Positions 6,546 to 60,112 of a stretch of DNA of 64,000 bases are shown one piece after another. Numbering within the stretch: the stretch's first letter is position 1; every line of letters starts with the position of its first letter. The position numbers were made by a program, and so were the translations under genes. Origin of the DNA: Patescibacteria group bacterium (GTDB lineage Bacteria > Patescibacteriota > Minisyncoccia > Phycocordibacterales > UBA2100); NCBI GenBank assembly GCA_038064535.1, contig JBBTSX010000009.1, positions 1,603 through 65,602 on the forward strand, in the 5' to 3' direction. The notes under the pieces are model-generated. The model made no database searches. It saw nothing but the letters and a program-made list of their open reading frames with translations, and had not been told where the DNA came from.

Positions 6546-6742
6546 CAGATTGAGTGAAGCGAAAGATGTGCACCAGGAGCACAGTGCTGAGCACTGTGCG
6601 TAAGGAATCGAACGCCGGAGCGGGCCCCGCGCGACTACGCGCGGGTGCGAGGCGGTGCCTAGCCCGAGTCTGCCGACGGGCGGACGAGAGGCGAGGGAGA
6701 GTCCTTCCTACCCCGCGCACCGAATAAAAGTATAATGCTCTG

Positions 6743-8047
6743 ATGAACTACCGTGTCCAAGGAGGCAAACAACTTTCGGGTACAGTCACGACCAACATCT
6801 CCAAAAACGCCGCTGTGGCTCTGCTCGCGGCGTCGCTCTTGAACCGCGGCGAAACGATTCTCAAGCGCATGCCGCGCATCGAGGAGGTGAAGCGGCTCAT
6901 CGAGGTGATGGAAAGTATCGGCGTGAAAATCGCGTGGGACATCAACGGCGACATGACCATTATGCCGCCAAAGAGATTCGACCTCTCGAACATAAACCGC
7001 GTGTCAGCCGAGAAGACGCGCTCCATCGCGCTTTTCATCGCGCCACTCGCACACATCTTTGAATCATTCGATTTGCCGGCACCGCGGGGATGCGATCTCG
7101 GCAAAAGGAGTCTTGGGGCGCACGTCGACGCGCTTGCAAAGCTGGGGATTACCGTAACGGGGGACGAATCTGCACACACCTACCATGTGGAGAGTAATGG
7201 AAAACATCCCGCGGAGCTCGTGATGTTTGAGGCGAGCAATACGGGCACCGAGAACACGCTCATGGCAGCGGCACGTATTGACGGCGTGAGCACGATTAAA
7301 TTCGCGAGTGCGGATTATATGGTCCAGGACCTCTGTTTCTTTCTTGAGCAATGCGGCGTCAAGGTCGACGGTATCGGCACGTCCACCTTGGTCGTTCACG
7401 GAAAGAAAGATATCGACGCGAGCATAATCGGATATCCGAGCGAAGACCCGATCGAGAGTATGTTCTTTTTCTCGCTCGCGGCGACCACCGGTTCTGAATT
7501 GACGATAGAGCGGTGTCCAATCGATGTGTTGGAGCTGGAGTTGCTCACGCTCGAGAGCATGGGTCTGCACTACGAGCGCGGGATTCCGTACACCGCCGAG
7601 AATGGGAAGACGCGATTGGTAGATATCATGATCAAGCCTTCGAAACTGATTGCACCGCCCGAAAAAATCGCCGCGCGGCCGTTCCCGGGCATCAATACCG
7701 ACAACCTTCCGTTTTTCGTCCCCATCGCGACCCAAGCGGAAGGCGACACGCTCATTCACGACTGGATGTACGATGGCCGCGCTCACTGGTATTTGGAAAT
7801 CAACAAACTTGACGCGCACGCTGAACTTCTCGATCCACATCGCGTTCTAATCAAAGGTCCCACACCGCTCCATGGGGGCGAAATCGAGGCACCTCCCGCA
7901 CTCCGTCCCGCCACCATGCTCTTGATCGGCATGCTTGCCGCAGAAGGTGAATCGATGCTCCGCAATGTGTATCCCATAAACCGCGGCTACGCCAATCTCT
8001 CCGAGCGCCTGAAGACCCTCGGCGCTTCCGTTGAAGCCGTGGAGTAA
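6743..8047 (+). CDS. murA: UDP-N-acetylglucosamine 1-carboxyvinyltransferase
   Basis: N-terminus YRVQGGKQLSGTVTTNISKNAAVALL and C-terminus RGYANLSERLKTLGASVE are colinear with E. coli MurA. Active-site loop PRGCDLGKRSLGAHVDAL carries the catalytic Cys. Confidence 0.93.
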   Translation: MNYRVQGGKQLSGTVTTNISKNAAVALLAASLLNRGETILKRMPRIEEVKRLIEVMESIGVKIAWDINGDMTIMPPKRFDLSNINRVSAEKTRSIALFIAPLAHIFESFDLPAPRGCDLGKRSLGAHVDALAKLGITVTGDESAHTYHVESNGKHPAELVMFEASNTGTENTLMAAARIDGVSTIKFASADYMVQDLCFFLEQCGVKVDGIGTSTLVVHGKKDIDASIIGYPSEDPIESMFFFSLAATTGSELTIERCPIDVLELELLTLESMGLHYERGIPYTAENGKTRLVDIMIKPSKLIAPPEKIAARPFPGINTDNLPFFVPIATQAEGDTLIHDWMYDGRAHWYLEINKLDAHAELLDPHRVLIKGPTPLHGGEIEAPPALRPATMLLIGMLAAEGESMLRNVYPINRGYANLSERLKTLGASVEAVE

Positions 8048-9265
8048 CTAGCCGTTTACGACGCGGATTTTCTTGGCGGCAATAGCCGCCTTTTTTCGTG
8101 CCTCGGCGACGGTTTTGCCGAGCGCGAGGACGACGGCCATGCGGCGATGGCCGGGGGACATGGGCTTGCCGAAGATGCGGACCCACGTTCCTTTTTCTTT
8201 CAATGCGTTCTCGACTCCTGTATAAGTGGGGTTCTCCGTTTTTATATCCGCGAGTATTGCCACCGAGGCTCCGGGTCGGCAGGGGATTTCGGGAATGGGG
8301 AGGTCGAGAATAGCTCGCACGTGGAGTTCCATCTCACTCATGGTCTGTGAGACCATTGTGACCATGCCGGTGTCGTGCGGGCGGGGCGAGAGCTCGGAGA
8401 ACCACACCTTGTCACCTTTCACAAAAAGTTCGACGCCGAAGATGCCGCGGCCATTCTTGCCGCACAAATTATCGACAACCTTCCTCGCGATGTCCTGTGC
8501 TTTTTTGAGCGCTGTTTTCGTCATCGGGTGCGGTTGCCACGATTCGCGGTAGTCGCCGTCTATCTGAATATGTCCGACCGGCTCGCAAAACGAAATGCCC
8601 GCCTCGGCTTCGCCTCGGCGAGACGGGCCGCCCTTGTGAGCAATCGTCAGCAGTGTGATTTCGTAATCAAAGTTTATTTTGCCCTCCACGATGACCATGC
8701 CGGTCTGCGCACGCGTACCCTCCATAGCGAATTTCCAGCACCTCGCCAAATCTTGCGGTTTTTTAGCCACGGATTGGCCATGACCGCTTGAAGACATTGT
8801 CGGTTTGATGAAGCAGGGGAATCCGACTGCCTTTGCGCCCGCCTCGAGTTCTTTGAGCGATGCGGCAAAACGGTACGGCGAAGTCGGCAATTTCAACTTC
8901 TCGGCGGCGAGTTCGCGTATACCGCGGCGGTCCATGGTGAGCCGCACGGCTCGCGCGGTCGGGATAACCCGCCAACCTTCTTTCTCAAGTTTGACGAGTG
9001 TGTCGGTCGCGATGGCTTCTATCTCGGGGACAATATAGTCGGGCTGTTCTTTTTCGATAACCTTGCGCACCATCTTTCCATCGCGCATGTTGAAGACATG
9101 CGAGCGGTGCGCGACTTGCATCGCAGGTGCGTTCTCGTAGCGGTCGCACGCTATCGTCTCAATGCCGAGACGCATGGCTTCGATGACGACCTCTTTGCCG
9201 AGTTCGCCGGAGCCGAGCATGAGGAGCTTGATGGCGGAGGGCTTGAGCGGCGTCCCGAATTTCAT
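8048..9265 (-). CDS. purT: Formate-dependent phosphoribosylglycinamide formyltransferase (GAR transformylase 2)
   Basis: Colinear with E. coli PurT over the whole length: LLMLGSGELGKEV, YIVPEIEAIATD, FPCFIKPTMSSSGHGQS, FDYEITLLT, GDYRESWQPHPM, FSELSPRPHDTGMVT. Its stop abuts the murA stop with 0 nt gap. Confidence 0.93.
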   Translation of the reverse strand: MKFGTPLKPSAIKLLMLGSGELGKEVVIEAMRLGIETIACDRYENAPAMQVAHRSHVFNMRDGKMVRKVIEKEQPDYIVPEIEAIATDTLVKLEKEGWRVIPTARAVRLTMDRRGIRELAAEKLKLPTSPYRFAASLKELEAGAKAVGFPCFIKPTMSSSGHGQSVAKKPQDLARCWKFAMEGTRAQTGMVIVEGKINFDYEITLLTIAHKGGPSRRGEAEAGISFCEPVGHIQIDGDYRESWQPHPMTKTALKKAQDIARKVVDNLCGKNGRGIFGVELFVKGDKVWFSELSPRPHDTGMVTMVSQTMSEMELHVRAILDLPIPEIPCRPGASVAILADIKTENPTYTGVENALKEKGTWVRIFGKPMSPGHRRMAVVLALGKTVAEARKKAAIAAKKIRVVNG

Positions 9266-9383
9266 CCCGTTAGAGGCAGGAAGCGTTGCTTCCCGCGCTG
9301 GTTACGCATGAGTAATCTCGACCACAGTGATTGTCCATATTGAAATCCGATAATCGAAATTGTCTTCCGCAGCCTCTAACGGG
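9266..9383. promoter_or_regulatory. Divergent purT/purN control region bounded by a 12-bp perfect inverted repeat, with a nested palindrome
   Basis: CCCGTTAGAGGC at 9266-9277 is the reverse complement of GCCTCTAACGGG at 9372-9383. An inner palindrome GGAAGC-GTT-GCTTCC lies at 9279-9293. Confidence 0.4.
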
Positions 9384-9422
9384 ATTCATGTACGCAATAT
9401 AGCAGGGTATAGTGTGTCGTCT

Positions 9423-10145
9423 ATGGCTCCGAAATTGATCGTCTTTGCCTCCGGTACTGCAGAGGGCGGGAGCTCGAGTACGACTCCACTTGGATTTTCT
9501 AAGACGATGCATCGTCAAGAAAATCTCGGCGGAGGCTCGGGATTTGAAAACCTCGTCAAAAGCCCGGACCTCAAGGCCGACATCGTCGCAGTCGTTTCCA
9601 ATCACGAACACGGTGGGGTGCGGGCGAGAGCCGAAAGGCTCAATGTTCCTTTTGTGCATTTTCCCGCACCGTGGGACGCAGAGCACTATGCTAGTGTTTT
9701 GCAAAAGACTGCAATAGGAAACGGGTGGGTCGCGCTCTCGGGTTGGTTCAAATTCGTGCACGGATTGAACCCCGCAAAGACATTCAATGTTCACCCGGCA
9801 TTACTTTCTTTCGACAATGGTCGCTTCGGAGGCAGGGCGATGTTCGGGCCGCGTATGCACGAAGCGGTGCGTGAAGCGTTTGAGCGGGGCGAGATCACCG
9901 AAAGCGGTTGCACCATGCATTTCGTTACCGACGAGTACGACCGCGGCCCCGCATTTTTCGAATATCGCGTACCCCTATCAAAAGGTATGGTGCCCGACGA
10001 CATTGCACAAGCTGTGAACAACGTGAAACACGAGTGGCAGCCGCGCATTACCAACATGGTCGTGCACGGCGAAATATCGTGGGACGGCAAAAACCCGCAA
10101 ACGCTGAAAGTGCCCGCGGGTTACGAATACTTCCCGAAACTCTGA
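9423..10145 (+). CDS. purN: Phosphoribosylglycinamide formyltransferase (folate-dependent formyltransferase domain, PurN-like)
   Basis: KLIVFASG..., NVHPALLS (HPSLLP motif), HFVTDEYDRGPAFFE are colinear with PurN. The track starts at a TTG at 9360; the first ATG is 9423, preceded by TATAGT at 9408-9413. Confidence 0.8.
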   Translation: MAPKLIVFASGTAEGGSSSTTPLGFSKTMHRQENLGGGSGFENLVKSPDLKADIVAVVSNHEHGGVRARAERLNVPFVHFPAPWDAEHYASVLQKTAIGNGWVALSGWFKFVHGLNPAKTFNVHPALLSFDNGRFGGRAMFGPRMHEAVREAFERGEITESGCTMHFVTDEYDRGPAFFEYRVPLSKGMVPDDIAQAVNNVKHEWQPRITNMVVHGEISWDGKNPQTLKVPAGYEYFPKL

Positions 10146-18039: not shown

Positions 18040-18455
18040 ATTCTTTCGTTCCCATTCTTGTACGGAATGGACGCACGCACCGAAAACTCCCGGTTCGTGC
18101 CGGGGTCATAAATTACCTGCGAGGTGAAGACCTCTCAGAAGTGACTTGGCGCGAGCCGGATGTAGCCCCAGACAGAGGGGAATGTGTGCGGGACCCGGCT
18201 CTACGGTTACGCGATAGCGAGGGAATTGCGAGGGACTTTCTGAAGTCTCAGCTCACCCTACTTCACCGAACACCTACATGTTTCAATGGCGACTTACATT
18301 GTTGCATACAACAATGTCGTGTATCACGTGAATGGCGGTGGATAAGGAATCACAGAACGGGCTCAAGATAAGTAAAGTAGTCATGTCCATGAGATAAGCC
18401 AATATTAGTCATCGTTTGAGTTACGAAAGTGTATCTCACGGGGTATAGTGGCTCT

Positions 18456-19781
18456 ATGAAATGGTATGAAGAGCCGTTCAAGGGAAAGAAAATCACCGTG
18501 CTGGGTCTCGGGCTTCTCGGGCGTGGGGTCGGCGATGTCGATTTTTTGGCCAAGTGCGGGGCGGAGGTCCTCGTGACCGACAAGAAAAACGGCAGCGAGC
18601 TCGCGGCGTCGGTGGAAAAATTGAAACAATATTCGAATGTGCAGTTCAAGCTCGGTGGTCACGACCCCGAGGATTTTAAACACTGCGACATGGTGCTCAA
18701 GGCTGCGGGCGTGCGACTGGATTCGCCGGAAGTCGCCGTCGCCCGTGCCGCCGGCGCGCAGGTCGCAATGTCGACTGCGCTATTTGCAAAGTATGCGTCG
18801 GAAGCGGGAGTGAAAATTGTCGGTGTCACCGGCACGCGCGGCAAGTCGACCATCACCCACATGATTTACCATTCTCTAATTCGCACGAATAAGAGAACGG
18901 TTCTGGGAGGGAATGTGCGGGGTCTCTCGACGCTCGCACTTCTTCCGGAAGTAAAAGCGGGCGATATCGCGGTGCTTGAACTGGATTCGTGGCAGCTACA
19001 GGGATTCGGCGAGTTGAAAATGAGTCCGCACATCGCGATTTTTTCCAATCTCATGCCCGACCATCAGAATTACTACAAAAATTTGGACGAGTATTTTGCC
19101 GACAAGGCCAACATTTTCCGCTACCAAAAGCCGAGCGACGTGCTTGTTGTGGGGCAGGGTATTGAGGCGCGGGTTCGCCATGCGAACCCACCCGTTGAGC
19201 CGCTCGTACCGGGTGCGCTACCGGCGGATTGGACGCTACAGGTCCCCGGCGAGCACAACAGACACAATGCGGCGCTCGCCGCCGCCGCGCTTCTTTCGCT
19301 CGGCCTCAATTCAGAACAAATTCGCACCGGCCTTGAATCTTTTGAAGGTGTCGAAGGCCGCCTGCAGCTCGTCAGCGAGAAAAACGGCGTGAAGATTTAC
19401 AACGACAACAACGCGACCACGCCGGAGGCGACTGTCGCAGCACTCAAGGCACTGTCCGGCAATTATCGACTTCGTAAGTCGATAATTTTGATTGGGGGTG
19501 GTTCCGACAAAGGACTTGAGTTGGGTAATCTGGCGGCGGAGATATGCGACTCTTGTAAAGCAGTTGTGCTGTTGTCCGGAACAGGTAGCGAGAAATTGGC
19601 ACCCCTGCTTGATTCACGATTCACGATTCACGATTCTCTTTCATCTGCAGTGCAAAGCGCGCTCAAGCTTGCTGACGCCGGCGATATTGTTCTCTTCAGT
19701 CCCGCATTTGCATCGTTCGGCATGTTCAAAAATGAGTACGAGCGCAACGACCAATTCCTCGCACTCATCGCAAAGCTATGA
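18456..19781 (+). CDS. murD: UDP-N-acetylmuramoylalanine--D-glutamate ligase
   Basis: Colinear with E. coli MurD: KKITVLGLGLLG, IVGVTGTRGKSTIT, C-terminal GDIVLFSPAFASFGMFKNEYERNDQFLALIAKL. The track starts at GTG 18429. ATG 18456 is preceded by TATAGT at 18444-18449. Confidence 0.9.
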   Translation: MKWYEEPFKGKKITVLGLGLLGRGVGDVDFLAKCGAEVLVTDKKNGSELAASVEKLKQYSNVQFKLGGHDPEDFKHCDMVLKAAGVRLDSPEVAVARAAGAQVAMSTALFAKYASEAGVKIVGVTGTRGKSTITHMIYHSLIRTNKRTVLGGNVRGLSTLALLPEVKAGDIAVLELDSWQLQGFGELKMSPHIAIFSNLMPDHQNYYKNLDEYFADKANIFRYQKPSDVLVVGQGIEARVRHANPPVEPLVPGALPADWTLQVPGEHNRHNAALAAAALLSLGLNSEQIRTGLESFEGVEGRLQLVSEKNGVKIYNDNNATTPEATVAALKALSGNYRLRKSIILIGGGSDKGLELGNLAAEICDSCKAVVLLSGTGSEKLAPLLDSRFTIHDSLSSAVQSALKLADAGDIVLFSPAFASFGMFKNEYERNDQFLALIAKL

Positions 19782-19822
19782 ACCCCGTTAGATAACACAT
19801 ATAGTCTTTCAACACTGCCATT

Positions 19823-21199
19823 ATGTTTAGCAAACAAACAAAGTTACAACAAACATCCGGTTCGTTATCTAACGGGGTGAAGTTACCCGCGCATGTGTAC
19901 ATGGTAGGGGTTGGAGGTATCGGGATGTCCGCGCTTGCCCAGCTACTCAAACATCGTGGACACACAGTAGAAGGTTCTGACCGCGACGAATCCCCGACGA
20001 CGGAACTGCTCGCACACAAGGGCATATCGGTGACCATCGGGCACCTGCCTGCGCCTGCCGGCGCGAATGCAGGCGGGCAGGCTGGCGACCAGTGCAATAT
20101 TCCCGCCGACACGGAATTACTCATTTACAGCGATGCGGTGCCCTCGACCAATCGCGAACGCACGCGGGCGAAAGAGATGGGCATTCCGGAGATGTCGTAT
20201 TTCGAGGCGCTCGGAGAAGTTTCGGCCGGAGTGCAAACTGTTGCCGTTGCCGGCACGCACGGGAAGACCACGACGACCGGCATGCTTGCGGCGATATTGA
20301 AAGCGGCGGGGCGTGCGCCGACCGCAATTGTCGGCTCCATTGTTCAGGATTTTGGCTCCAATTTTCTTGCCGGTCGGGAGGACCTGTTCGTCGTGGAGGC
20401 GTGCGAGTATCGTGACCACATACTGAAGCTCAACCCGGAAATTCTCGTCATCACAAATATCGAACTCGACCACACTGATTATTTTCCGACCCTTGAATCT
20501 CTCATTGAGACGTTCCGCGCTGCGGTACGCAAGGTTCCACGCGAAGGTTTCATTATTACCGACCCGAATGGGGCCAACATTGCTGCGGCGCTTGATGGTG
20601 CGCAGGCCCGCATCATCGATTACACGCAGACCGACGTGCCGCCGCTTTCTCTCATCGGCGAGTTCAATCGTATGAACGCCCGAGCCGCTTCAGCTGCTGC
20701 TAGGGCCGTGTTCCCCGGTATTCCCGAAAGCGCGATACACGACACGCTCACCAATTTCCACGGCTCGTGGCGACGTTTCGAATACAAAGGCGAGACGCCA
20801 AGCGGCGCTTTGGTCTATGACGACTATGCGCATCATCCGACCGCGATGCGCAAGACGATAGAAGCGGCGCGCGAGAAATTCCCCGGCAAGAAAATCGTCG
20901 TCGCGTTCCATCCGCATCTCTACAGCCGTACGAAGTCGCTTCTCAATGAATTTGCCGCAGCACTCGCCAAGGCCGACAAGGCGATAGTCGTTCCCATATA
21001 TGCGGCACGCGAAGCCCCCGACCCCAGCGTCTCCAATCATATTCTCGCCGCGCTCGCGCGCTATCAGGGCGGCGATGTCTCGGCACTCGACGATTTCAGC
21101 GTCATCCGCGATGCGCTTCTCGAAGAAGATAAAAACTCGCTCATCATCACCATGGGTGCGGGAGATATCTACAAGGTCGCCGAACAAATCGCCGATTGA
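19823..21199 (+). CDS. murC: UDP-N-acetylmuramate--L-alanine ligase
   Basis: VHMVGVGGIGMSALA, VAVAGTHGKTTTTGM, ITNIELDHTDYF and DDYAHHPT are colinear with MurC. Confidence 0.9.
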   Translation: MFSKQTKLQQTSGSLSNGVKLPAHVYMVGVGGIGMSALAQLLKHRGHTVEGSDRDESPTTELLAHKGISVTIGHLPAPAGANAGGQAGDQCNIPADTELLIYSDAVPSTNRERTRAKEMGIPEMSYFEALGEVSAGVQTVAVAGTHGKTTTTGMLAAILKAAGRAPTAIVGSIVQDFGSNFLAGREDLFVVEACEYRDHILKLNPEILVITNIELDHTDYFPTLESLIETFRAAVRKVPREGFIITDPNGANIAAALDGAQARIIDYTQTDVPPLSLIGEFNRMNARAASAAARAVFPGIPESAIHDTLTNFHGSWRRFEYKGETPSGALVYDDYAHHPTAMRKTIEAAREKFPGKKIVVAFHPHLYSRTKSLLNEFAAALAKADKAIVVPIYAAREAPDPSVSNHILAALARYQGGDVSALDDFSVIRDALLEEDKNSLIITMGAGDIYKVAEQIAD

Positions 21200-21234
21200 T
21201 TTTTCATTGAGGTCAAATTGAAATCAAAAAGAGA

Positions 21235-21272
21235 GTACACTATAACAGGCCGACCGGCCTGTTATAGTGTAC
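21235..21272. repeat. 38-nt palindromic element, copy 1 (GTACACTATAACAGGCCG-AC-CGGCCTGTTATAGTGTAC)
   Basis: Near-perfect 16-bp arms. Each arm contains a TGTTATAGT-like extended -10 box facing outward. Related copies lie at 46950-46987 and 47551-47588. Confidence 0.7.
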
Positions 21273-21289
21273 TTATAAGGAGACGGTCT

Positions 21290-22383: not shown

Positions 22384-22424
22384 CGGGAGCTACCACGCTC
22401 TCCGTGAAGCGGTATACTGCTCGT

Positions 22425-24287: not shown

Positions 24288-24363
24288 ACTCGGACTTTAC
24301 AAAATCCACATTATTTCCAACAATTCGGCTCTTTGTGCCAAGTTGTGAGGGATAATGGTCTTC

Positions 24364-42200: not shown

Positions 42201-43033
42201 AGAAACTAGCCGTGGTCGCTAGCGGTTGGCATTTCCCGATAGCGTTTTTCGAGCAGATGAAGGGTCAGAAAGTGCCGGAAGGTTGGCAGGTTGATATGTA
42301 TTGTGTCTCTCATCGCGACCCCTCTCATGCGCGTACGGAAAAAAAGGAGATGCTCGCCGGATTGGGGTTCACCAGACGGGAACTGTATGACCGGATTTTG
42401 TACAGGTCTGTCGCATCGGTTGCGGACATAGAGGCGCTGGGCTGGCGGTATGTGCTGGAGCCAAATTCCGTCGGTGACTGGGGGAACAGTAATCAGTGGC
42501 TGGCGAAGAATGATTACAAACAATACGACAAATTTTTGTTCACGCACGACGACAATTTTATTTTGACCGATCAAATGTTTGAAGATTTGCTGCCCCAAAC
42601 TGATTGGCTCATAGCTACCAATTCAACCGGACATGCGCAGAGGCGCTTGCGGCAGTGGCTTCGCTTGCCAAAACCGTTCTTCGCCCGCGGTTCATTCGAA
42701 CTCTTTACTCGTGAAGCAATGGATATAATTGGAGGTAGTTTTGATTTGTCTAGAAAGACACTAACTCGTGAAGGGAAATTTGATTCACCCGCCGATTTTG
42801 GAGAACTCTCGAATTGGAATGAGAACGATAAAGCCGTTAGAGAGTTAGTCGAGAAAAGAGGTCTTCTTCCTAAGATTAAATCTCTCTCCCCATATTATCG
42901 GATGAGCAAATACTGCCTTGAGGGTGAGCGCGGTTATATCCACAAAACCGAGCGGTCCAACACAAGAGAAGAAGAAAAGGGCCTTGACGCCGTAGAGCGC
43001 CACTACGCGTCGAAGAAAGTAACTGAAGTATAA
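42197..43033 (+). CDS. Hypothetical protein (278 aa)
   Basis: Translationally coupled (ATGA) to the upstream gene. No recognizable motif. Confidence 0.4.
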   Translation: MKKLAVVASGWHFPIAFFEQMKGQKVPEGWQVDMYCVSHRDPSHARTEKKEMLAGLGFTRRELYDRILYRSVASVADIEALGWRYVLEPNSVGDWGNSNQWLAKNDYKQYDKFLFTHDDNFILTDQMFEDLLPQTDWLIATNSTGHAQRRLRQWLRLPKPFFARGSFELFTREAMDIIGGSFDLSRKTLTREGKFDSPADFGELSNWNENDKAVRELVEKRGLLPKIKSLSPYYRMSKYCLEGERGYIHKTERSNTREEEKGLDAVERHYASKKVTEV

Positions 43034-43069
43034 AAGAGCCACGCTCTCTCGCCGGCTTGGCGTATTCCC

Positions 43070-43732
43070 TTGCCATTGGGGAATCACTGCGCTTTACGGT
43101 ACTATACACGGGTGAAAAGACCGTGGGACACTTTTTCCGAGGAAAAGATGAGGCGGATATTCTCCGAGAAGCGCCGCGTTATAGACATTGGCGGCGGGCT
43201 GCGCGTTGATCCGGGAAAGAATAACCGGTTCAACGAAGGTCAGGCGGCGTGGTTACGGCCCCTCATCAAACAGGTGGAGTATCTGATACTCGACAAGGTA
43301 CCGGATTTCCACCCGGACATAGTAGGAGACGTGCATGACCTGCCGTTTGCCGACGCGTCGGAGGAGGCCATCCTCTGCATAGCGGTGCTTGAGCATGTAG
43401 AGAACCCGATGCGCGCGATGGATGAGATTTACCGGACGTTGCAACCGGGCGGCTTTGCGTTTATCTACGTTCCGTTTCTCTATTACTATCACGCGCACCA
43501 CGGCTATTACGGCGATTTCTGGCGCTTCACCAAAGACACGCTCGAATTGTTCGGCAAACGTTTTTCAACGTGTGAAATTATGCCTGTACGCGGCGCCATC
43601 GAGACGTGGATACGGCTCAGTCCGCTGGGTCGCCGGAAGCTTTTCTGCGATATCGGGTATATACTGGACCGCGTTACCGGCAAGATACACAGCAATCAAA
43701 CAAGCGGATACCATGTTTTCCTCGTCAAGTAG
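43070..43732 (+). CDS. Class I SAM-dependent methyltransferase (Methyltransf_11-like)
   Basis: VIDIGGG, FADASEEAILCIAVLEHV, LQPGGFAFIYVP. An alternative start is at 43148. Confidence 0.7.
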   Translation: MPLGNHCALRYYTRVKRPWDTFSEEKMRRIFSEKRRVIDIGGGLRVDPGKNNRFNEGQAAWLRPLIKQVEYLILDKVPDFHPDIVGDVHDLPFADASEEAILCIAVLEHVENPMRAMDEIYRTLQPGGFAFIYVPFLYYYHAHHGYYGDFWRFTKDTLELFGKRFSTCEIMPVRGAIETWIRLSPLGRRKLFCDIGYILDRVTGKIHSNQTSGYHVFLVK

Positions 43733-43769
43733 CCCGTCAGTCACGTTCATACTGTCGACATATTGAGGT

Positions 43770-44336
43770 ATGGTTGATCCGGAAAAAATTGCACATATGC
43801 CGCCACGCGTATATACAGAAGACCCCGAGTTTACAATGTCACCGGAGCATCTCCCCGATGACGTGTATGCGCAGGCCATTTCGTCGCTCGTCGTTGTGTG
43901 TGCCGATGTTCTGTTTGCCGATCGTGCAAGGAAAACGGTTTTCCTGGCGCACAGAAAAGTAAAACCCATGATAGGGCTGTGGCTTATCGGCGGTAGGATA
44001 CGGGCGGGAGAGCAGGCAGATGCCGGTATGGCGAGGATTGTACAACGGGAAACATCGCTCACACTTCCCGCCGGACGATTCGAATTTCTGGCGATGCACC
44101 GGTACTTTTTTAAAGACAGGAAACAGCAACCGCAGGAGAAGGGCACAGACGCTCTCGTGTATACATTTCTCGCGGAGGTTACACCGGATGAATTACGCAT
44201 TGCCGCGGCGCATCTCGACCCCGGCGAGTATGAGACCGCGGGTTTTGAAGAATGTAATCGCGATGCACTTGTCGCAGCGGAAGTGCACCCGGCAATCCTT
44301 GACCTGTACGATTCCGCTTTTCCCGAACGCGCATGA
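43770..44336 (+). CDS. Nudix-hydrolase-like protein (degenerate Nudix box)
   Basis: GGRIRAGEQADAGMARIVQRETSL loosely matches GX5EX7REUXEEXGU. Confidence 0.4.
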   Translation: MVDPEKIAHMPPRVYTEDPEFTMSPEHLPDDVYAQAISSLVVVCADVLFADRARKTVFLAHRKVKPMIGLWLIGGRIRAGEQADAGMARIVQRETSLTLPAGRFEFLAMHRYFFKDRKQQPQEKGTDALVYTFLAEVTPDELRIAAAHLDPGEYETAGFEECNRDALVAAEVHPAILDLYDSAFPERA

Positions 44337-45451
44337 ATATTATTTACATAAGCAACGCCAGGATACCGACCGAATGGGCCCACGGTCTCCAAATCATGAA
44401 AACGTGCGAGGCGCTGGCGTTGTCCGGTGCCCGTCTTGAGTTGTGGATTCCGGACAAAAAGATGGATATCCATGAGGACCCGTTTGCATACTACGGTGTC
44501 AAAAAAGCCTTCCCTATAAAACGGTTCTTCACGTTCGACCTGATATGGCTCGGGAAAATAGGCTTCATCATTCAAAGCGTGTCGTTTGCCCTCGCAGTAC
44601 TTCCGTCGCTTAGGCGCACAAAACGCGACACCATTTATTGTCGTGATGAAATAATTGTCGCACTGCTTCTTTTCTTCGGTGTTCGGGACATTGTCTGGGA
44701 GTCACACGACGGGTCGTGGGGGGTGTTTGCACGATATGCCGCGCAAAACGCACGCCGGATGGTCGTCGTGACACAGGGGCTAAAAGATTTCTATTGCGAA
44801 CGCGGCATGGTAGCCGGGGACATATACGTTATCCCGAACGGCATTGACTTGAAGTCATTTGAACATCCCGAATCCGGCGAGAAGGCACGTGCCCGCCTGG
44901 GGCTCCCGCTCGGAAAAAAAATTGCATTGTATATAGGAATGCTCGAGGGCTGGAAGGGTACCGGCACATTGCTGAAGGCTTCGTCATTTGTTTCGAGTGA
45001 CACCGTGATAGTGATAATCGGCGGAGAAAGCGAACAGCAGGTGGCACGTTTGGCGGATGAGTATCCGCGCGTACGTTTTCTCGGCTTCCGGCCCGTGCGG
45101 GAGCTGGCGGACAACCAAGCAGCCGCTGACGTGCTCATTTTACCGAATACCGGTGTCGGCGATATTTCAGTCCGATTCACGTCGCCGCTTAAGCTCCTTT
45201 CGTATATGGCGTCGGGGAGGCCGGTTATTGCGTCCGACCTGCCGTCCATACGGGAAGTTGTCGGTGAAAAAGACGCTTTTCTCGTACCGCCGGATAATCC
45301 GGACGCTTTGGCGAAAATGATTGATACGGTACTCGAGAACCCCCATGATGCGCAGATGCGTGCGCAGGCGGCACGCGAGCGGGTGCAAGAATACACGTGG
45401 GAAAAGAGGGCGCAAAGAATTCTTGATGCTCTGGAAGAGAAAACGGTATGA
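44333..45451 (+). CDS. Glycosyltransferase family 4
   Basis: MNIIYISNARIPTEWAHG, C-domain LLSYMASGRPVIASDLPS. ATGA overlaps with both neighbours. Confidence 0.85.
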   Translation: MNIIYISNARIPTEWAHGLQIMKTCEALALSGARLELWIPDKKMDIHEDPFAYYGVKKAFPIKRFFTFDLIWLGKIGFIIQSVSFALAVLPSLRRTKRDTIYCRDEIIVALLLFFGVRDIVWESHDGSWGVFARYAAQNARRMVVVTQGLKDFYCERGMVAGDIYVIPNGIDLKSFEHPESGEKARARLGLPLGKKIALYIGMLEGWKGTGTLLKASSFVSSDTVIVIIGGESEQQVARLADEYPRVRFLGFRPVRELADNQAAADVLILPNTGVGDISVRFTSPLKLLSYMASGRPVIASDLPSIREVVGEKDAFLVPPDNPDALAKMIDTVLENPHDAQMRAQAARERVQEYTWEKRAQRILDALEEKTV

Positions 45452-46152
45452 CTATGATACGGAATATATTGAAACGCATAGCGCCGCTACGCCGGGCGGT
45501 ATTGCGTCTCAGGCGCGGGAAGCCGTATGTCAAAAGCTACTCGCAACTCGGTGAGGACATAGTCGTTCGTCATGTGTTCCGGAAGCTCGCGATTGCGCAC
45601 CCGACCTACATTGATATCGGCGCAAACGACCCCCTGCGGTTCAACAACACGGCGCTGTTATACGAGACGGGTTCGCGCGGTGTCACCATTGAGCCGGACC
45701 CGGCGGTTTTCAAAGAGATAGTGAGAAGGCGCACGCACGATATCAATCTCAATATAGGAATATCGGATGCGAACGGAGAAGCCGATTTTTATCGTTGCAA
45801 TGACGATAAACTCAGCACGTTCTCAAAGGAAGAGGCCGAGCGCGTGGCCCGCACAACGCCCGCCTTGTCGTTCGAGGTAATGAAAATCCCGACACGTACC
45901 ATAGGTTCCGTCATCACCGAATATTGCGGAGGGGTGTTTCCTGATTTCCTGTCGCTTGATGTAGAAGGTCTGGATTACATGGTGCTCAAATCCATTGATT
46001 ACGCGAAAAGTGCTCCGAAAATCATCTGCGTCGAGACCGCGCATGCCTACGATGAAATCGACAGCCTCCTCACATCAAAGGGATACACCAGACTTTCCAC
46101 AACGTTCCTCAATACAATTTATTGCAATACGGTACTCTGGGAGAGCCGCTGA
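45448..46152 (+). CDS. FkbM-family methyltransferase (Methyltransf_21)
   Basis: YIDIGANDP, ...DFLSLDVEGLDYMVL. Confidence 0.75.
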   Translation: MTMIRNILKRIAPLRRAVLRLRRGKPYVKSYSQLGEDIVVRHVFRKLAIAHPTYIDIGANDPLRFNNTALLYETGSRGVTIEPDPAVFKEIVRRRTHDINLNIGISDANGEADFYRCNDDKLSTFSKEEAERVARTTPALSFEVMKIPTRTIGSVITEYCGGVFPDFLSLDVEGLDYMVLKSIDYAKSAPKIICVETAHAYDEIDSLLTSKGYTRLSTTFLNTIYCNTVLWESR

Positions 46153-46167
46153 TATACGCGGTTGTTT

Positions 46168-46812
46168 ATGGAACACGAACTTTCGTCACAAATAAATCCG
46201 GACCACTACGTCCACGGGTACGACCACCAGCCGCGCTGGCTCGCGTATTTCTACCAGATAGAGAATGTCCTGAAGCTGGGCAAACGCTCGATTCTGGAAG
46301 TGGGGCCCGGCAACGGGACTGTTTCCAATTATCTGAAGATGAGCGGCATGGATGTCACGACGGCGGATATCGACCCGGCGCACGGACCTACCGTCGTCGC
46401 CTCGATTCTCGACTTGCCGTTGCCGGACAATCAGTACGATGTTTCCATGGCGTGCGAAGTTCTCGAACACATTCCGTTTGAAGAACTTCACGTCGCCGTT
46501 TCCGAGCTTGCCCGCGTGTCCAAGGAGTATGTGATTATCTCGGTTCCGGATGTGCGCCGGACGCTCCTGTATCTGGTCTTGAAGCTCCCGTTTCTGCCGG
46601 AGGTGGCGTTGCGTATCCGCATGATGACGAGGAAAATACACGTATTTAACGTCGGACACTTTTGGGAGATAGGAAAACTGGAGTATCCTCCGTCCCGCGT
46701 GCGCGCCGTCATAGAAAGTTGCGGTCTGACGGTAATTGACGAGTTCGCCCCGCACGACGCGCCGTTTTTCCATTTTTTCATCATGCGCAAATCTAAAATA
46801 CAAAAGACATAG
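46168..46812 (+). CDS. Class I SAM-dependent methyltransferase
   Basis: ILEVGPGNGT, YDVSMACEVLEHIP. The track TTG start is at 46162; the first ATG is 46168. Confidence 0.75.
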   Translation: MEHELSSQINPDHYVHGYDHQPRWLAYFYQIENVLKLGKRSILEVGPGNGTVSNYLKMSGMDVTTADIDPAHGPTVVASILDLPLPDNQYDVSMACEVLEHIPFEELHVAVSELARVSKEYVIISVPDVRRTLLYLVLKLPFLPEVALRIRMMTRKIHVFNVGHFWEIGKLEYPPSRVRAVIESCGLTVIDEFAPHDAPFFHFFIMRKSKIQKT

Positions 46813-46987: not shown

Positions 46988-47546
46988 TCTCTTTTAGACC
47001 GAAATGCCGGCGAAGACGCAGGTCGTTCTCAATGCTGTCAGCGATGATATAGAGAACTTCTCTGCCGAGACGATAATCTGCCTTGAGAAGAACGAGGATT
47101 TCCTCGGAGTCGAACGGGTGGACCCACACACTATCTTGTAATTTGACATACCCTATTTGAAATAGGGTGTCGCGCAGTCGCTGTCGCAATAATCGCTTTG
47201 ACTCTGGGATATCAAAAATGACGATGCGCCACCTGCCATCCCATTTGGTTGATTTGGGTGTTGAGCCCATTCGTGTTGCCAAAAAGACTTTGCCACGCTC
47301 CGTGAGTTGAATAAATCGCTTCCCAGACTTGGTCTCAACTGTAATGAGCCCGGCTCGTATCAAACGGCCAACGGCACCGCGCGCACTGTTTATATTCTTT
47401 TTAGTGATAGCTCTCCCTAATACTGAAAGGGTGTTGGGTGCAAGTGCGGTGAGAGCAATAATGCCGCCCAGTTGCAGAGTCGTAAGGATTGCTTCCCGTA
47501 TTTTCGTCCTACGCAACCTTCTCGCAGAGTCTTTTTCAATGCTCAT
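46977..47546 (-). CDS. PaaX-like transcriptional regulator, paralog 2
   Basis: WDGRWRIVIFDIPESKRLLRQRLRDTLFQIGYVKLQDSVWVHP (PaaX_C pattern). About 45% identical to 30937-31515. Confidence 0.6.
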   Translation of the reverse strand: MSIEKDSARRLRRTKIREAILTTLQLGGIIALTALAPNTLSVLGRAITKKNINSARGAVGRLIRAGLITVETKSGKRFIQLTERGKVFLATRMGSTPKSTKWDGRWRIVIFDIPESKRLLRQRLRDTLFQIGYVKLQDSVWVHPFDSEEILVLLKADYRLGREVLYIIADSIENDLRLRRHFGLKESTL

Positions 47547-47550
47547 TCCG

Positions 47551-47588
47551 GTACATTATAACAGGCCGGTCGGCTCGTTATAATGTAC
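47551..47588. repeat. 38-nt palindromic element, copy 3, immediately upstream of the PaaX-like start codon
   Basis: GTACATTATAACAGGCCGGTCGGCTCGTTATAATGTAC. On the gene's strand it reads TGTTATAATGTAC-cgga-ATG, i.e. an extended -10 box 8 nt before the start. Confidence 0.7.
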
Positions 47589-47626
47589 CGGGTGTAGTGG
47601 GGATAAGTTGACGGAAATTAGCGTGG

Positions 47627-48298
47627 GTGTGGGATACTATTTCGCATATGCAAGACGCCGGAGGGTCGGGCACCGTTAGTCGTTTCGTCAAAATATGGCG
47701 CCGCGTCCGCTGGCCGCTCGGTATCATTGTGATTGTATATATCGCCCTCGTCATCTTGCGCATTCCTGCGGTGCTGGAGCAACGGCGGACGGCGGAAACA
47801 GTCGACAGGATTCATGCGCAAAGGCTCACGCTCGAAAATGTCGACGGCAAACATCTCCCGCCGCCGCCCGACCCTGCGCAAGTAGACGCGACGATTGAGG
47901 GTGTGGATGCAAACGCAAACGGCATTCGCGACGACGTGGAGCTCGCGATTTTCGAGAAGTATCCCAGCTCCCCGTATACCCGTGCGGCCGAACTGCAGTA
48001 TGCAATGGCGCTACAGATGTATTTGACCGAGGTTTTCAACTCGGAGACGTGGGTTGCGGTAGCAATTCGTTCGGGAAAAGGCTATGGCTGTCTATACGAC
48101 ACGGTACCGAGAGTGAAACTGTCGGATAGTGACGAAGTAATACAACAGACTTTTGAAATAGTCCAAAAACGAATTGATGAAACGGAAAATCTAGTTTTCA
48201 ACACATCAAAGCGAAAGCATGTATACGATGAGGTAAACAGAAAGTTTACAACATCTTTTGGTGGGTCAGCGGACAAAAGCTGCGACTTATCATTGTAG
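47627..48298 (+). CDS. Hypothetical membrane-anchored protein
   Basis: N-terminal TM WPLGIIVIVYIALVILRIPAVL. Otherwise no recognizable motif. Confidence 0.4.
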   Translation: MWDTISHMQDAGGSGTVSRFVKIWRRVRWPLGIIVIVYIALVILRIPAVLEQRRTAETVDRIHAQRLTLENVDGKHLPPPPDPAQVDATIEGVDANANGIRDDVELAIFEKYPSSPYTRAAELQYAMALQMYLTEVFNSETWVAVAIRSGKGYGCLYDTVPRVKLSDSDEVIQQTFEIVQKRIDETENLVFNTSKRKHVYDEVNRKFTTSFGGSADKSCDLSL

Positions 48299-52856: not shown

Positions 52857-52877
52857 TGTATCTAGTAAGATAGCTGC

Positions 52878-53771
52878 ATGTCGAAGTCTAATGTACTTAT
52901 AACCGGAGCGGCGGGCATGCTTGGCAGTGCGTTTTCCGACGAATTCAGTACAGCGGAGTATGATGTCCGCGCACTTTCTCATGAGGAGCTTGATGTCACC
53001 GACAGAGATGCGGTACTGAAGGAAGCCGCTTTCGCGCCGGATATCGTCGTGCACACCGCCGGCATAGTAGATGCCGATTATTGCGAAGTGCATCGCGACG
53101 AGTGTTTCGCCGTTCACGCGGGCGGCACGGGGAACATCATCGAGCTGTGCCGGAAGACGGGGGCCAAGCTACTGTATCCGCAGTCGTTTCTTATCTTTGA
53201 CGGGAAGGAGCAGCCGATAACCGAAGAGACGGAGCCGCGCCCGCTGTCCGTCTACGGAGAGGCCAAGTGGGCTGCGGAGCAGGCGATACGGGATGCTCTT
53301 CCCGACGCACTCATCATCCGCATGGGAGGTTTTTTCGGCGGGTTTGAAAAAGACAAGAATTTTGTCGGCATGTTTGCGCGCTTCATGAAAAAGAATATCG
53401 ATGCGGGGAATCGCTCTCTCGTCGGCACGTCGCGGGTGTGGCAGCCCACGTCGACCGTGGCGCTGGCACACAATGCCCGTATTCTCATTGAGGCCGGCAA
53501 GTCCGGTGTCTATGCGATGGCGAGTCAGGGCAGTGCGTCGTTTTTTGATGTGGCGCGGGCGATGGTGGAGATCATGCATCTCGAAAATCGCATGACTATC
53601 ACCGAAGTCCCGTCGAATCATTTCAAGGAGAAGTGCAGGCGTCCGGAAAACGGGACAATGGAGAACCGGCGCTTGAAAGAGGAGGGGCTTGATATGATGT
53701 CTGAGTGGCGCGACAGTCTCGCGAAGTACCTCTCTGAACCCTACTTTACAGACCTTTTTTCATCATCATGA
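52878..53771 (+). CDS. RmlD-family NDP-4-keto-6-deoxyhexose reductase (dTDP-4-dehydrorhamnose reductase-like)
   Basis: VLITGAAGMLGSAF, LDVTDRDAV, PDIVVHTAGIVDADYCE, YGEAKWAAE (YxxxK). Confidence 0.7.
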   Translation: MSKSNVLITGAAGMLGSAFSDEFSTAEYDVRALSHEELDVTDRDAVLKEAAFAPDIVVHTAGIVDADYCEVHRDECFAVHAGGTGNIIELCRKTGAKLLYPQSFLIFDGKEQPITEETEPRPLSVYGEAKWAAEQAIRDALPDALIIRMGGFFGGFEKDKNFVGMFARFMKKNIDAGNRSLVGTSRVWQPTSTVALAHNARILIEAGKSGVYAMASQGSASFFDVARAMVEIMHLENRMTITEVPSNHFKEKCRRPENGTMENRRLKEEGLDMMSEWRDSLAKYLSEPYFTDLFSSS

Positions 53772-58089: not shown

Positions 58090-58566
58090 TTACCGGTAAT
58101 CAATACCACCGGGTTCGCGAATGGGCGCACCGGACGGAGGAGTCGGTTTCTCCTCTGCAAACACGAGATGCTGGTATCCGACGTAACTGATGAGAGCAAC
58201 GACAATTCCCGCAAGCACTTGCGCAACGAGGTACCAGACAGTAAACCACTCGACAAAAACATACATAAGAAGCGTATTCACCATCAGGCTGAAAAGTATG
58301 ACCGCGCTGTATTTCGCGAACTGGAAATGCAAGCCGCTCATCCGGCGGTCACTAAATGTCCAGAATTTCTGTAAGGTAAAACTGGTCGCCGTAGAGAGAA
58401 TGAATGCCAAGACCGAAGCGGGGAGGTAGTGGACGTTTCCGAAGCGGACAAGTACAAAAAGAATACCGAGGTTGCAGGCCATTGCCGTTACTCCCGAAAT
58501 AACAAAACGGGCGATTTTCAACATCTGCGGAGAAAGAAGCTCCCCGATTATTCCTATTCCGCGCAT
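58090..58566 (-). CDS. GtrA-family small membrane protein (flippase-like component for polyprenyl-phosphate sugars)
   Basis: MRGIGIIGELLSPQMLKIARFVISGVTAMACNLGILFVLV...QKFWTF (GtrA pattern), 4 TM helices. The track ORF is over-extended to 58938. Confidence 0.65.
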   Translation of the reverse strand: MRGIGIIGELLSPQMLKIARFVISGVTAMACNLGILFVLVRFGNVHYLPASVLAFILSTATSFTLQKFWTFSDRRMSGLHFQFAKYSAVILFSLMVNTLLMYVFVEWFTVWYLVAQVLAGIVVALISYVGYQHLVFAEEKPTPPSGAPIREPGGIDYR

Positions 58567-58593
58567 ACCGCCATTGTAGCAGGCACCAAGGTT

Positions 58594-58621
58594 CAAACCC
58601 CGGGGCTTGCCCCGGGGTTTG
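58594..58621. promoter_or_regulatory. Perfect 13-bp inverted repeat CAAACCCCGGGGC-tt-GCCCCGGGGTTTG in the 76-bp divergent GtrA/GT-C promoter region
   Basis: The arms are exact reverse complements. It is centred about 36 nt upstream of the GT-C ATG (58643), overlapping the presumed -35. A CATACT -10 lies at 58630-58635. Confidence 0.5.
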
Positions 58622-58642
58622 ATACACTTCATACTTGATTGC

Positions 58643-60112
58643 ATGAAGCGCAGTGTTGCCGACTTTATAAAAAATGAGTGGATTTTTATAGTGCTACTGA
58701 TACTGGTGGGAGGCTTTTCGCTGTATGACCTCACCGAGGCGCCCCGCACGTGGTACGACGAGGGAATGATTATGCAATTGGCGCAAAATTTGGCTACGTA
58801 CGGAACGATGGGAACGCAAATCGCACCGGGTGAATTTGTATCTGCGGCGTACACGTCGACCGGATATCCGCTCGTCGCTCCGATTGCAGGTGCGTTCGCG
58901 CTTTTCGGGGAATCGCTCGCGGTAGCGCGTCTCGTCATGGTGGCTTTTATTCTGCTCCTGTTTTCCGCCTCGTATGTTTTTGTGCGGCGATTGGCGGGCA
59001 GAACGTACGCTCTTGCCGCCGCCGCTCTGTTGGCGACCTTTTCGACGCTCTACGGCGACGGAAAGAATGTACTGGGAGAGGTCCCGGGTCTTTTTTTCTT
59101 TGTTATGTTCGCAATCTATGCGCACCGGATATTCGACGAGGGAGTGATTACAAAAAAGAATGCCGTCCTGGCGGGACTGTTTTTGGGGTTGTGTGCCGCA
59201 ACGAAACCGACATTTCTCGTGCTTGGCGGGGCGGTGTGCGTCGGGCTTATATACGCGTGGATCCGGAAGGGGGCAACAATCCCGCTCCATATCGCGCTCC
59301 TGGCTACGGGTGCGACACTGCTACCCGTACTGCTATGGCTTATCACGCAGTTTAGTCTCAGCGATTCTCCCGCCCGCGTATTGTCATTTTATGCCAACCC
59401 CTACCTCCTGCAGGACTTCTCGCAGGTCATGTCACACAATGCGCTTCGATTCCTTACCGAGCAGACGCCGATGTATTTGCTCGGCATGGTTGCGGTGTGG
59501 GGCGCCGCTGTAGTTGTCCGCCTTGTCAGAAAAGAGCGCATACCGTTCGTGGAAGTGGTGGCCATCTCGTTCACAGGACTCATTCTCATGGCATACCTAC
59601 GTACCCCCGGCTGGTACCGGTATCTCTTTCCGGCGCAGATTGTGTCCATGATTTTCTTTCCGGTTGCCCTCATGCACTATGTGCGATGGTTGTCGGCGTG
59701 GCGATTCGCGCGCGCGGCCCGCATAGGAGCCGTCGTCCTTTGTGCGGCACTGATTGGTCTCCAAACGTACGTACTGCTTTTCTCATCATGGGTCGGCACA
59801 TATTACGGAGCAACCACTACGGCACAAATGGGACAATATTTTCACGGGCTGAATCCGGACAGCATTTTCTTTGTCTATGATATTCCGGAAGTTGTTATCT
59901 TTCTTCCGCGCGGCGCTCCGTACTATCAGTACCTCTCGGTGAACGGCAGCGGGTACTGGGGAATCGGCAAGGAGGAGCTTGCGGTTATCAGCGCAAGAAT
60001 CCCGGACGTGCTCATCATTCCGTCGGAACTGGCGGAAGGCACGACGCCACTGTTTCCCGGGTATGCGAAGAAAACGCAAATCGCAGGCATAAGCGTGCTT
60101 GAGCGGGAATAA
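58643..60112 (+). CDS. GT-C fold glycosyltransferase (ArnT/PMT-like, GT39/GT83 type)
   Basis: First TM, then the loop motif RTWYDEG (DE/DD motif), and more than 10 TM helices. The track TTG start is at 58607. Confidence 0.7.
   Translation: MKRSVADFIKNEWIFIVLLILVGGFSLYDLTEAPRTWYDEGMIMQLAQNLATYGTMGTQIAPGEFVSAAYTSTGYPLVAPIAGAFALFGESLAVARLVMVAFILLLFSASYVFVRRLAGRTYALAAAALLATFSTLYGDGKNVLGEVPGLFFFVMFAIYAHRIFDEGVITKKNAVLAGLFLGLCAATKPTFLVLGGAVCVGLIYAWIRKGATIPLHIALLATGATLLPVLLWLITQFSLSDSPARVLSFYANPYLLQDFSQVMSHNALRFLTEQTPMYLLGMVAVWGAAVVVRLVRKERIPFVEVVAISFTGLILMAYLRTPGWYRYLFPAQIVSMIFFPVALMHYVRWLSAWRFARAARIGAVVLCAALIGLQTYVLLFSSWVGTYYGATTTAQMGQYFHGLNPDSIFFVYDIPEVVIFLPRGAPYYQYLSVNGSGYWGIGKEELAVISARIPDVLIIPSELAEGTTPLFPGYAKKTQIAGISVLERE

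Follow-up and report, generated by a model that had tools for sequence, protein, structure and literature searches.

The bacteria placed in group C by the gene finder GeneMarkS-2, Actinobacteria and Deinococcus-Thermus such as Mycobacterium tuberculosis and Deinococcus deserti, carry a -10 box 6-8 nucleotides (nt) before the starts of operon-leading genes, with little or no -35 element; a quarter to half of the transcription units are built in this way, and their starts are mis-called unless the signal is modeled (PMC6028130). It is the restriction of the motif to the first genes of operons by which GeneMarkS-2 separates group C from group B (PMC6028130). On the side of the ribosome, loss of the anti-Shine-Dalgarno (anti-SD) sequence has been reported for a subgroup of the Parcubacteria (Tsurumaki et al., 2022, RNA 28:1041; PMC9297842), in a study that does not say how start sites are chosen instead and from whose text the word 'leaderless' is absent. 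We analyzed a window of 64,000 nt, the whole stretch of DNA from contig JBBTSX010000009.1 that heads this text, in which an original prediction had noticed -10-like hexamers shortly before the ATG of at least eleven genes and had proposed widespread leaderless translation. These hexamers are most likely sigma-70-type -10 promoter elements that would give rise to leaderless mRNAs in a lineage devoid of an anti-SD sequence.

Bacteria of the candidate phyla radiation (CPR) represent a large uncultured share of bacterial diversity, and their ribosomes are stripped-down. The host of the window is a groundwater Candidatus Kaiserbacteria, a taxon that the NCBI taxonomy positions within the Parcubacteria group of the Patescibacteria, the CPR. 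Its MurA protein (6743-8044) shares 94% and 91% identity with MurA from two genome bins of Candidatus Kaiserbacteria; for about 80 further Kaiserbacteria, Paceibacterota and Parcubacteria genomes, the identity is 65-82%. An identical protein is present on contigs of Hainich groundwater wells. The GC content of the window is ~54%.

What we describe is the known group C leaderless architecture, present in a lineage for which our literature search, incomplete in its coverage, found no report of leaderless genes, be it under CPR, Patescibacteria, Parcubacteria or Saccharibacteria. Like group C, the Kaiserbacteria display the spacing, the TAnnnT core and the restriction of the signal to first genes. 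In group C, the other genes are led by Shine-Dalgarno (SD) sites and the 16S rRNA keeps CCUCC, whereas the tails of the Kaiserbacteria clade lack CCUCC and SD-like motifs are a small minority; as regards SD sites and anti-SD sequence, the lineage is hence a variant of group C. Unlike the taxa listed as rich in group C genomes, the CPR are not named among them in the GeneMarkS-2 text (PMC6028130). With the subgroup of Tsurumaki et al. (PMC9297842) the clade shares the same loss at the level of the rRNA, to which we add the promoter-at-ATG signature as a candidate mechanism. Anti-SD loss in a Parcubacteria subgroup was thus published and the choice of start codons there remained unexplained; a -10 element six bases before the ATG in a fifth to a quarter of the genes, together with ATGA overlaps, provides a testable answer for the Kaiserbacteria clade, the candidate answer being leaderless initiation plus coupling. 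Mammalian mitochondria resemble the clade in having a small-subunit rRNA without anti-SD sequence and mRNAs that begin at or next to the AUG, as those of the Kaiserbacteria would. They differ from it in that most leaderless starts considered here have their own promoter and ATGA-overlap operons are common, and the form in which a gene abuts a tRNA occurs only in a few relatives and not in the window. The few SD sites upstream of genes are reminiscent of the Bacteroidetes of group B, which, however, keep but sequester their anti-SD sequence and carry a signal before all genes; in the Kaiserbacteria the signal is missing before operon-internal genes.

Our lineage-wide test set consisted of 80 related Kaiserbacteria/Parcubacteria loci (L001-L080; 1.1 Mb in total), all centered on murA and syntenic, among which L001 is the closest relative (its MurA is 94% identical to that of the window). 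Genes were called mechanically by a codon-usage score, with the first ATG of the open frame taken as the start, which yielded 49 starts in the window and 711 in the loci. Other upstream offsets of the same genes served as the background for the spacing peak. Because orthologues recur in murA-centered loci, the proteins were grouped into 319 clusters, each of which was weighted once. This re-analysis was undertaken since the sequence ACATCAGA was over-represented, all loci being centered on murA; the sequence was rejected as a general start-proximal motif, as it is the conserved leader of an orthologue group of Orn/DAP decarboxylases. The corresponding gene of the window (Orn/DAP/Arg decarboxylase, 4770-6002, minus strand) is leadered, and its 5' untranslated region (UTR) is conserved in sequence, with ATTGTCAGnnAATTAnTTATGnACATCAGAR directly before the ATG (6003-6045, minus strand) in ~20 loci.

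All eleven hexamer-ATG pairs of the original prediction are found in the window (Table 1); they amount to ten independent sites because the two rmlB sites belong to one duplicated segment. While every hexamer is present, several read better one or two bases downstream, with a modal spacing of exactly 6 nt (N6). This applies to the rmlB promoter as well: the proposed TAATAC at N7 and TTGGAA at a 16-nt spacing both exist, but they are better described as TGt-AATACT at N6 with a spacing of 17 nt. Pfam agrees with the gene identities, and since the domains open 5-15 residues past the proposed ATGs, these starts are neither truncated nor over-extended. The purN-like promoter stands back-to-back with a TATATT on the minus strand, and further sites of the same kind, beyond those listed in Table 1, precede 58031 and 14399 (both on the minus strand). 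The GCTC spacer noted earlier is indeed shared by 5 of the 11 window sites, the duplicate pair accounting for two of these, but it is no feature of the lineage, where it occupies 9 of 238 N6 spacers and is not enriched. These spacers have a mild preference only for G at -6 and C at -3, and the murA spacer of the closest relative, aggccg, is not of the GCTC type. Among the murA orthologues, 32 of 78 carry TANNNT exactly 6 nt before the start, six have TATAAT-N6-GTG, and the remaining upstream region is unconserved; a -10 element at N6-7 is present in 48% of 25 murD orthologues.

A scan for TANNNT near starts versus controls, as the original prediction had advised, revealed a strong position-specific enrichment both in the window and in the 80 related loci. 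In the window, TANNNT is placed at N6-7 before 9 of the 49 first-ATG starts when 2.6 are expected (P=0.0014); in the loci, it stands exactly at N6 before 114 of 711 starts, compared with 9.8 expected. Both sets yield a spacing distribution with a sharp N6 peak and a shoulder at N7-9. When the start calls are ignored, 19 of the 35 occurrences of TANNNT-N6/7-ATG in the window open an open reading frame (ORF) of 100 codons or more, compared with 61 of 324 when the spacing differs (P=1e-5). For the loci, long ORFs follow TANNNT-N6-ATG in 231 of 497 cases versus ~18% at other spacings, and the N6/7 form in 393 of 902 versus 18% (P=8e-58). Weighting by the 319 clusters leaves 20.5% at N6-7 against ~3% at three control spacings. 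A rough hand count puts the signature on over half of those genes in the window whose upstream region leaves space for a promoter. Every computational test thus supports the proposal of widespread leaderless translation, but 'widespread' has to be read as a large minority of genes, and leaderless translation itself, along with the position of the transcription start and the host's loss of its anti-SD sequence, is what we infer from the sequences.

Inspection of the 16S rRNA 3' end, likewise proposed, showed that the tails of the clade have no anti-SD sequence. All 44 tails recovered from the related loci, that of L001 included, lack CCUCC and read GGAUUCAUUC(C/A)AAA; the consensus, obtained first from 32 and then from all 44 tails, is GGA(U/A)UCAUUC(C/A)AA. 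In the Rfam small-subunit alignment of the complete 16S rRNA of L037, the consensus tail GAUcACCUCCUUu is aligned to GAAUCAUUCAAAC. No ACCTCCT is present within 300 nt after the 44 clade tails or in the spacer. Matches to GATCACCTCCTT in L007, L037 and L049 were rejected as rRNA ends, as 8-11 kb separate them from the 16S genes. The order 16S rRNA, tRNA-Ile, murA is conserved (L037, 7593-9027, and ~45 other murA loci), and many 16S genes at murA loci are interrupted by insertions, located around 1305 and 1391 in the numbering of the L037 16S rRNA. SD sites are rare, as had been claimed, because the 16S tails of the clade lack CCUCC: when SD-like 4-mers were counted 0-39 nt upstream of the 49 window starts, only two starts had one in the 5-10 nt range, at 5 and 9 nt, respectively. 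SD-like 4-mers precede ~13-18% of starts versus ~5% in the background, and the position profile of 760 starts displays no enrichment of purines or of G at -7 to -12. The sites at 28518 (GGAGGA), before the upstream open reading frame (uORF) at 21290 (AAGGAG) and at 22141, previously singled out as strong SD sites, cannot pair with a canonical anti-SD sequence if the 16S rRNA of the host resembles that of its relatives. A replacement SD was not detected either, as 5-mers complementary to the new tail (UUUUGGAAUGAAUCC) are not enriched upstream of starts.

The hexamers might have arisen by chance, or in A/T-rich intergenic DNA from which they were picked by eye; TANNNT is a loose pattern, its excess in the window is only ~3.5-fold over the upstream background, and a relaxed definition is needed for four of the listed hexamers. 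The enrichment tests have already refuted this explanation, which retains practically no probability: the peak stands at a single spacing with the other offsets of the same genes as background, the start-agnostic P values are those quoted above for the window and the loci, and independent promoter features and conservation across clusters add to them. In the N6 subset, the positions left free by the search spell TATAAT (T in 49%, A in 64%, A in 47%), T occupies -15 in 46% and G -14 in 62%, so that the consensus reads TGnTATAAT, and a pyrimidine is present at -1 in 69%. The extended -10 TG precedes 28% of the hexamers at real starts versus 7% of the control pattern (P=1e-14); the enrichment is specific to ATG, with none for GTG or TTG, and a -35 TTG at a 16-18-nt spacing is not enriched (10% vs. 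9%). A further possibility is that the A/T-rich hexamer acts in the RNA, as a non-SD ribosome-binding or enhancer element of a leadered mRNA like that of group B Bacteroidetes. With the anti-SD sequence missing, initiation needs a signal independent of SD sites, A/U-rich sequence around the start could lower structure or bind protein S1, and the motif does precede some genes with short gaps (13% at 0-12 nt). We nevertheless judge a role in the RNA to be very improbable. Judged by gap and overlap classes that rest on rough in-house gene calls, the motif is found before only 1 of 40 operon-internal genes with a 4- or 1-nt overlap with their upstream neighbor, which would need a ribosome-binding site all the same, versus 21-26% of the genes with an upstream gap of at least 13 nt (P=5e-4). 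The conserved T-12, A-11 and T-7 are the positions read by sigma-70, and for these and the TG there is no RNA rationale; moreover, the spacing is fixed at 6 nt, the distance from a -10 element to the transcription start. Judged by its sequence, the hexamer behaves as a sigma-70 -10 element rather than as a ribosome-binding site.

Promoters, or sigma-dependent pause sites, could also exist at these positions while the main transcripts start farther upstream, the leaderless form being minor. Long same-strand arrays, for instance 24364-34261 and 37371-46812, would allow such read-through, the promoters of 25774 and 52878, embedded in the 3'-terminal part of the gene before them, may be secondary ones, and in some relatives murA directly follows 16S and tRNA-Ile genes with which it is perhaps co-transcribed. 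Divergently arranged genes speak against this explanation: murA, murD, purN/purT and 58566/58643 have no upstream gene on the same strand and one good -10 element each. In addition, hexamer and spacing are conserved among orthologues; those of murA, murD, murC and purT have retained both the hexamer and its spacing from the ATG amid diverged surroundings, and the frequency of the motif peaks at large gaps (26% at >150 nt). Altogether, we deem a predominance of upstream transcripts improbable. Several observations nonetheless weigh against reading the hexamers as promoters of leaderless mRNAs. The presence of a -10-like hexamer beside an ATG is no proof of a transcription start at this site. 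Four of the listed hexamers are not TANNNT in the register first given for them, and GATAAT and CATACT are non-canonical in every register. The signature is found on only ~20-25% of all genes, mainly operon-leading ones. The loci are murA-centered and syntenic, which cluster weighting corrects only roughly, and in a wider set of CPR contigs of lower GC content the N6 signal is weak, so that the trait is clade-specific and not general to the CPR. The window has no 16S gene, which is missing upstream of its tRNA-Ile, and the anti-SD status of the host is thus taken from its relatives. Finally, genomes verified to be free of CCUCC still show a ~4-fold excess of GGAG, GAGG and AGGA at 6-9 nt upstream of starts. 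Part of this excess consists of -10 hexamers of the TAGGAT type; clear GGAGG cases remain, so that initiation of an SD-like kind may have persisted in some form. The excess in genomes with CAUUCC tails surpasses that in genomes with CAUUCA tails, and GGAG could pair with UUCC via one G.U pair, an idea that we offer as a lead only.

The sequence data lend themselves to the following model of leaderless initiation. A -10 hexamer occupies positions -12 to -7, and the standard gap to +1 is 6 nt. Housekeeping promoters, in many cases extended (TGnTAnnnT) and nearly or wholly lacking a -35 element, would position the RNA polymerase such that it starts at, or within ~3 nt of, the A of the ATG; because a 6-nt spacer follows the hexamer at -12 to -7, +1 should fall on this A. 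The resulting mRNA would have no 5' UTR, and the ribosome would initiate on the 5'-terminal AUG without SD/anti-SD pairing. Such an architecture would suit a lineage whose 16S tail appears to have changed from GAUCACCUCCUUA to GAUUCAUUC(C/A)AAA. Downstream operon genes would mostly be reached via stop/start overlaps (ATGA). Among the same-strand junctions of the loci, the 4-nt ATGA overlap is the commonest (38 of 304), followed by a 1-nt gap (14 of 304); the window has six ATGA junctions. Same-strand neighbors of the window overlap by 4 nt at 27249, 44333, 45448, 51248 and 53768 and by 8 nt at 29795. These overlaps are consistent with termination-reinitiation, that is, translational coupling without SD sites.

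The leaderless architecture has practical consequences for start-codon calling. As noted in the original prediction, several ORFs are over-extended, the longest-ORF starts at 9360, 18429, 22404, 28789 and 58607 being upstream GTG or TTG codons. The opposite error also occurs: a public gene call (L202, L203) cuts the purN-like gene to ATG 9507 (212 amino acids), into the Formyl_trans_N domain, whereas translation from ATG 9423 yields MAPKLIVFASG, the N-terminus to be expected. In these genomes, gene finders built around SD sites both over-extend and truncate, and the errors propagate into protein databases.

In some relatives, murA may have no promoter of its own to rely on. The distance between the 3' end of tRNA-Ile(GAU) and the murA ATG is 0 nt in L035 (tRNA at 3189-3264) and in L037 (9928-10003, where the junction lies downstream of the 16S gene), 1 nt in L017 (9009-9084) and 8 nt in L025 (3266-3350). 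With no room for a promoter or leader, processing of the tRNA would leave a leaderless murA mRNA; in these genomes a promoterless murA may thus be released by 3' processing of tRNA-Ile, similar to the tRNA punctuation of mitochondria. In the window, tRNA-Ile extends to 6546, and the murA start at 6743 has a TATAAT of its own.

Some start codons are associated with a mobile element. The motif CTAACGGG, which abuts the purT ATG 9265 (minus strand), the murC GTG 19877 and the murA ATG in six relatives, is the right end of a family of miniature inverted-repeat transposable elements (MITEs). Its members (CCCGTTAGA...TCTAACGGG) share the invariant termini YCCCGTTAGA / TCTAACGGGR plus a covarying extension, are roughly 100-130 nt long, and exhibit the small size, terminal inverted repeats, lack of own coding capacity and multiplicity of copies that characterize MITEs. 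At least 148 copies were analyzed, drawn from at least 120 contigs of an unbiased metagenome scan (L081-L200) and from pattern searches, which allowed lengths of 68-143 nt, a limit of the search. Among the matches listed, 76 of 135 copies are flanked by an exact duplication of a 4-bp target (TGAA 42, TTTA 12, TAAA 10). Empty purT sites in L012 and L025 read -10-N6/7-ATGAAATTCGGGACG, and at empty murC sites (L006, L007 and others) murC begins with M(K/N)IPQHVYMVGIGG / MKIPQHVYMVGIGG directly after -10-N6; as judged from this comparison of sequences, the empty sites in relatives prove insertion of the MITE. The 4-bp duplications, the many copies distant from genes and the empty orthologous sites also led us to drop CTAACGGG as a -10 element of an alternative sigma factor or as the closing stem of a riboswitch. 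Rfam, run on the whole window at the gathering threshold, returned two tRNAs only, and its E-value mode gave no match for 9200-9450; the inverted-repeat leader thus does not represent an RNA family already known.

No fewer than 49 of the at least 148 copies are inserted inside the A|TGAA of a start codon, such that the old ATG is retained upstream and the last base of the element (A or G) rebuilds an ATG or GTG. The purT promoter of the window now stands 6 nt before an orphaned ATG (Table 1). The 95-nt copy is inserted in the TGAA of the overlap between murD stop and murC start, and murC now begins either at its abutting GTG or at the in-frame ATG 19823 within the MITE. In 16 of the 49 start-codon copies, versus 5 of 99 controls (P=2e-5), the uORF that runs from the old ATG terminates at the TAA of the right repeat, with the rebuilt start 4 nt farther on, and the length of the MITE is 1 mod 3 in 26 of 49 versus 23 of 99. 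By a reading of the arm sequences, all copies of the main subfamily (~19) face the same way with respect to the gene, with no reversed one among them; a BLAST comparison of internal similarity yielded 9 same-orientation pairs and 2 opposite ones. The terminal repeats are predicted to fold into a 14-15-bp stem in which the first two bases of the main AUG are included (z = -4.5 and -3.1). This arrangement suggests leaderless initiation on the uORF, followed by reinitiation. The MITE would keep the old AUG at the 5' end of the mRNA, and the stem of the terminal repeats might mask the main AUG until the uORF has been translated. That the 5'-terminal AUG is the principal entry point of the ribosome, with the start-codon MITE and the tRNA-released murA built around it, is a tentative idea that we hold to be rather doubtful. 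If confirmed, a MITE that seeks start codons and a murA gene abutting a tRNA would be unusual consequences of the leaderless regime.

Table 1. Start sites with -10-like hexamers in the window, and copies of the MITE in the window and in related loci. Nx, spacer of x nt between hexamer and start codon.
Feature	Position and elements	Strand	Remarks
murA	TATAAT 6731-6736, N6 gctctg, ATG 6743	+	Pfam EPSP_synthase from residue 5
purN-like	TATAGT 9408-9413 N9 (or TAGTGT N7), ATG 9423	+	Formyl_trans_N domain requires ATG 9423
Old purT start	TATATT 9396-9401, N6 gcgtac, ATG 9389	-	Now opens a 39-codon uORF, MITE between ATG and ORF
murD	TATAGT 18444-18449, N6 ggctct, ATG 18456	+	MurD-like_N from residue 11; longest ORF from GTG 18429
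T4CP-like	TATACT 22413-22418, N6 gctcgt, ATG 22425	+	Longest ORF from GTG 22404
PKD-domain gene	24351-24366, GATAAT N7, ATG 24364	+	First base non-canonical, weaker case
GT4	TACAGT 28795-28800, N6 actcgt, ATG 28807	+	Earlier register TATACA N8; longest ORF from TTG 28789
Truncated rmlB-like copy	35219-35256, TTGGAA, 17 nt, TGt-AATACT, N6 gctcgc, ATG 35254	+	
Full rmlB-like gene	37336-37373, TTGGAA, 17 nt, TGt-AATACT, N6, ATG 37371	+	Same promoter as 35254
PaaX-like regulator	47544-47560, TGt-TATAAT N8 (or TAATGT N6), ATG 47546	-	-10 within the 44-bp palindrome 47548-47591
RmlD-like	52866-52880, TAAGAT, N6 agctgc, ATG 52878	+	Promoter embedded in the end of the upstream gene
GT-C (PMT_2)	58630-58645, CATACT N7, ATG 58643	+	First base non-canonical; longest ORF from TTG 58607
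Additional site, 492-aa gene	25762-25776, TAGTCT, N6 tcctct, ATG 25774	+	
Additional site, 420-aa gene	39027-39042, TAAGAT N7, ATG 39040	+	
Additional site, 278-aa gene	42183-42199, TATACT N8, ATG 42197	+	
Additional site, 216-aa gene	47635-47650, TACTAT N7, ATG 47648	+	
Additional site, 158-aa gene	58564-58578, TACAAT, N6 ggcggt, ATG 58566	-	Divergent from the GT-C gene
MITE, 120 nt	9265-9384	-	TCCCGTTAGAGG...CCTCTAACGGGA; TGAA duplication 9385-9388, 9261-9264; last base is the A of purT ATG 9265
MITE, 95 nt	19783-19877	+	CCCCGTTAGATAAC...GTTATCTAACGGGG; TGAA duplication 19779-19782, 19878-19881
Further MITE copies	L012 4835-4958; L014 152-266; L043 4282-4396; L074 411-534		

Several of the start sites in Table 1 are accompanied by other sequence features. 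A palindrome of 40-44 bp (..CTATAACAGGCCG AC CGGCCTGTTATAG..) occurs in two copies, each of which overlaps a -10 hexamer: one at 47548-47591, directly before the PaaX-like gene, the other at 21234-21273, before the short ORF 21290 and the gene at 21365. From its sequence and position, the palindrome looks like a putative operator of the regulator, present at the promoter of the regulator gene itself and at that of one target. The rmlB-like promoter is duplicated together with the first ~50 codons (35214-35409 vs. 37331-37526; 196 nt, 88% identity), at a distance of 2117 nt; the first copy, 100 codons in length, is a fragment, minus-strand ORFs are located between the copies, and the duplication is probably a rearrangement or insertion. 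A DnaA box, TGTGGATAA, is present 15-25 nt upstream of the murD -10 element in L001, L002, L006 and L045; the window contains no perfect DnaA box, only GGTGGATAA at 18337-18345, ~100 nt upstream of the murD -10 element. Between the divergent starts at 58566 (minus strand) and 58643 (plus strand), a perfect 14-bp inverted repeat (TCAAACCCCGGGGC / GCCCCGGGGTTTGA) spans 58593-58622.

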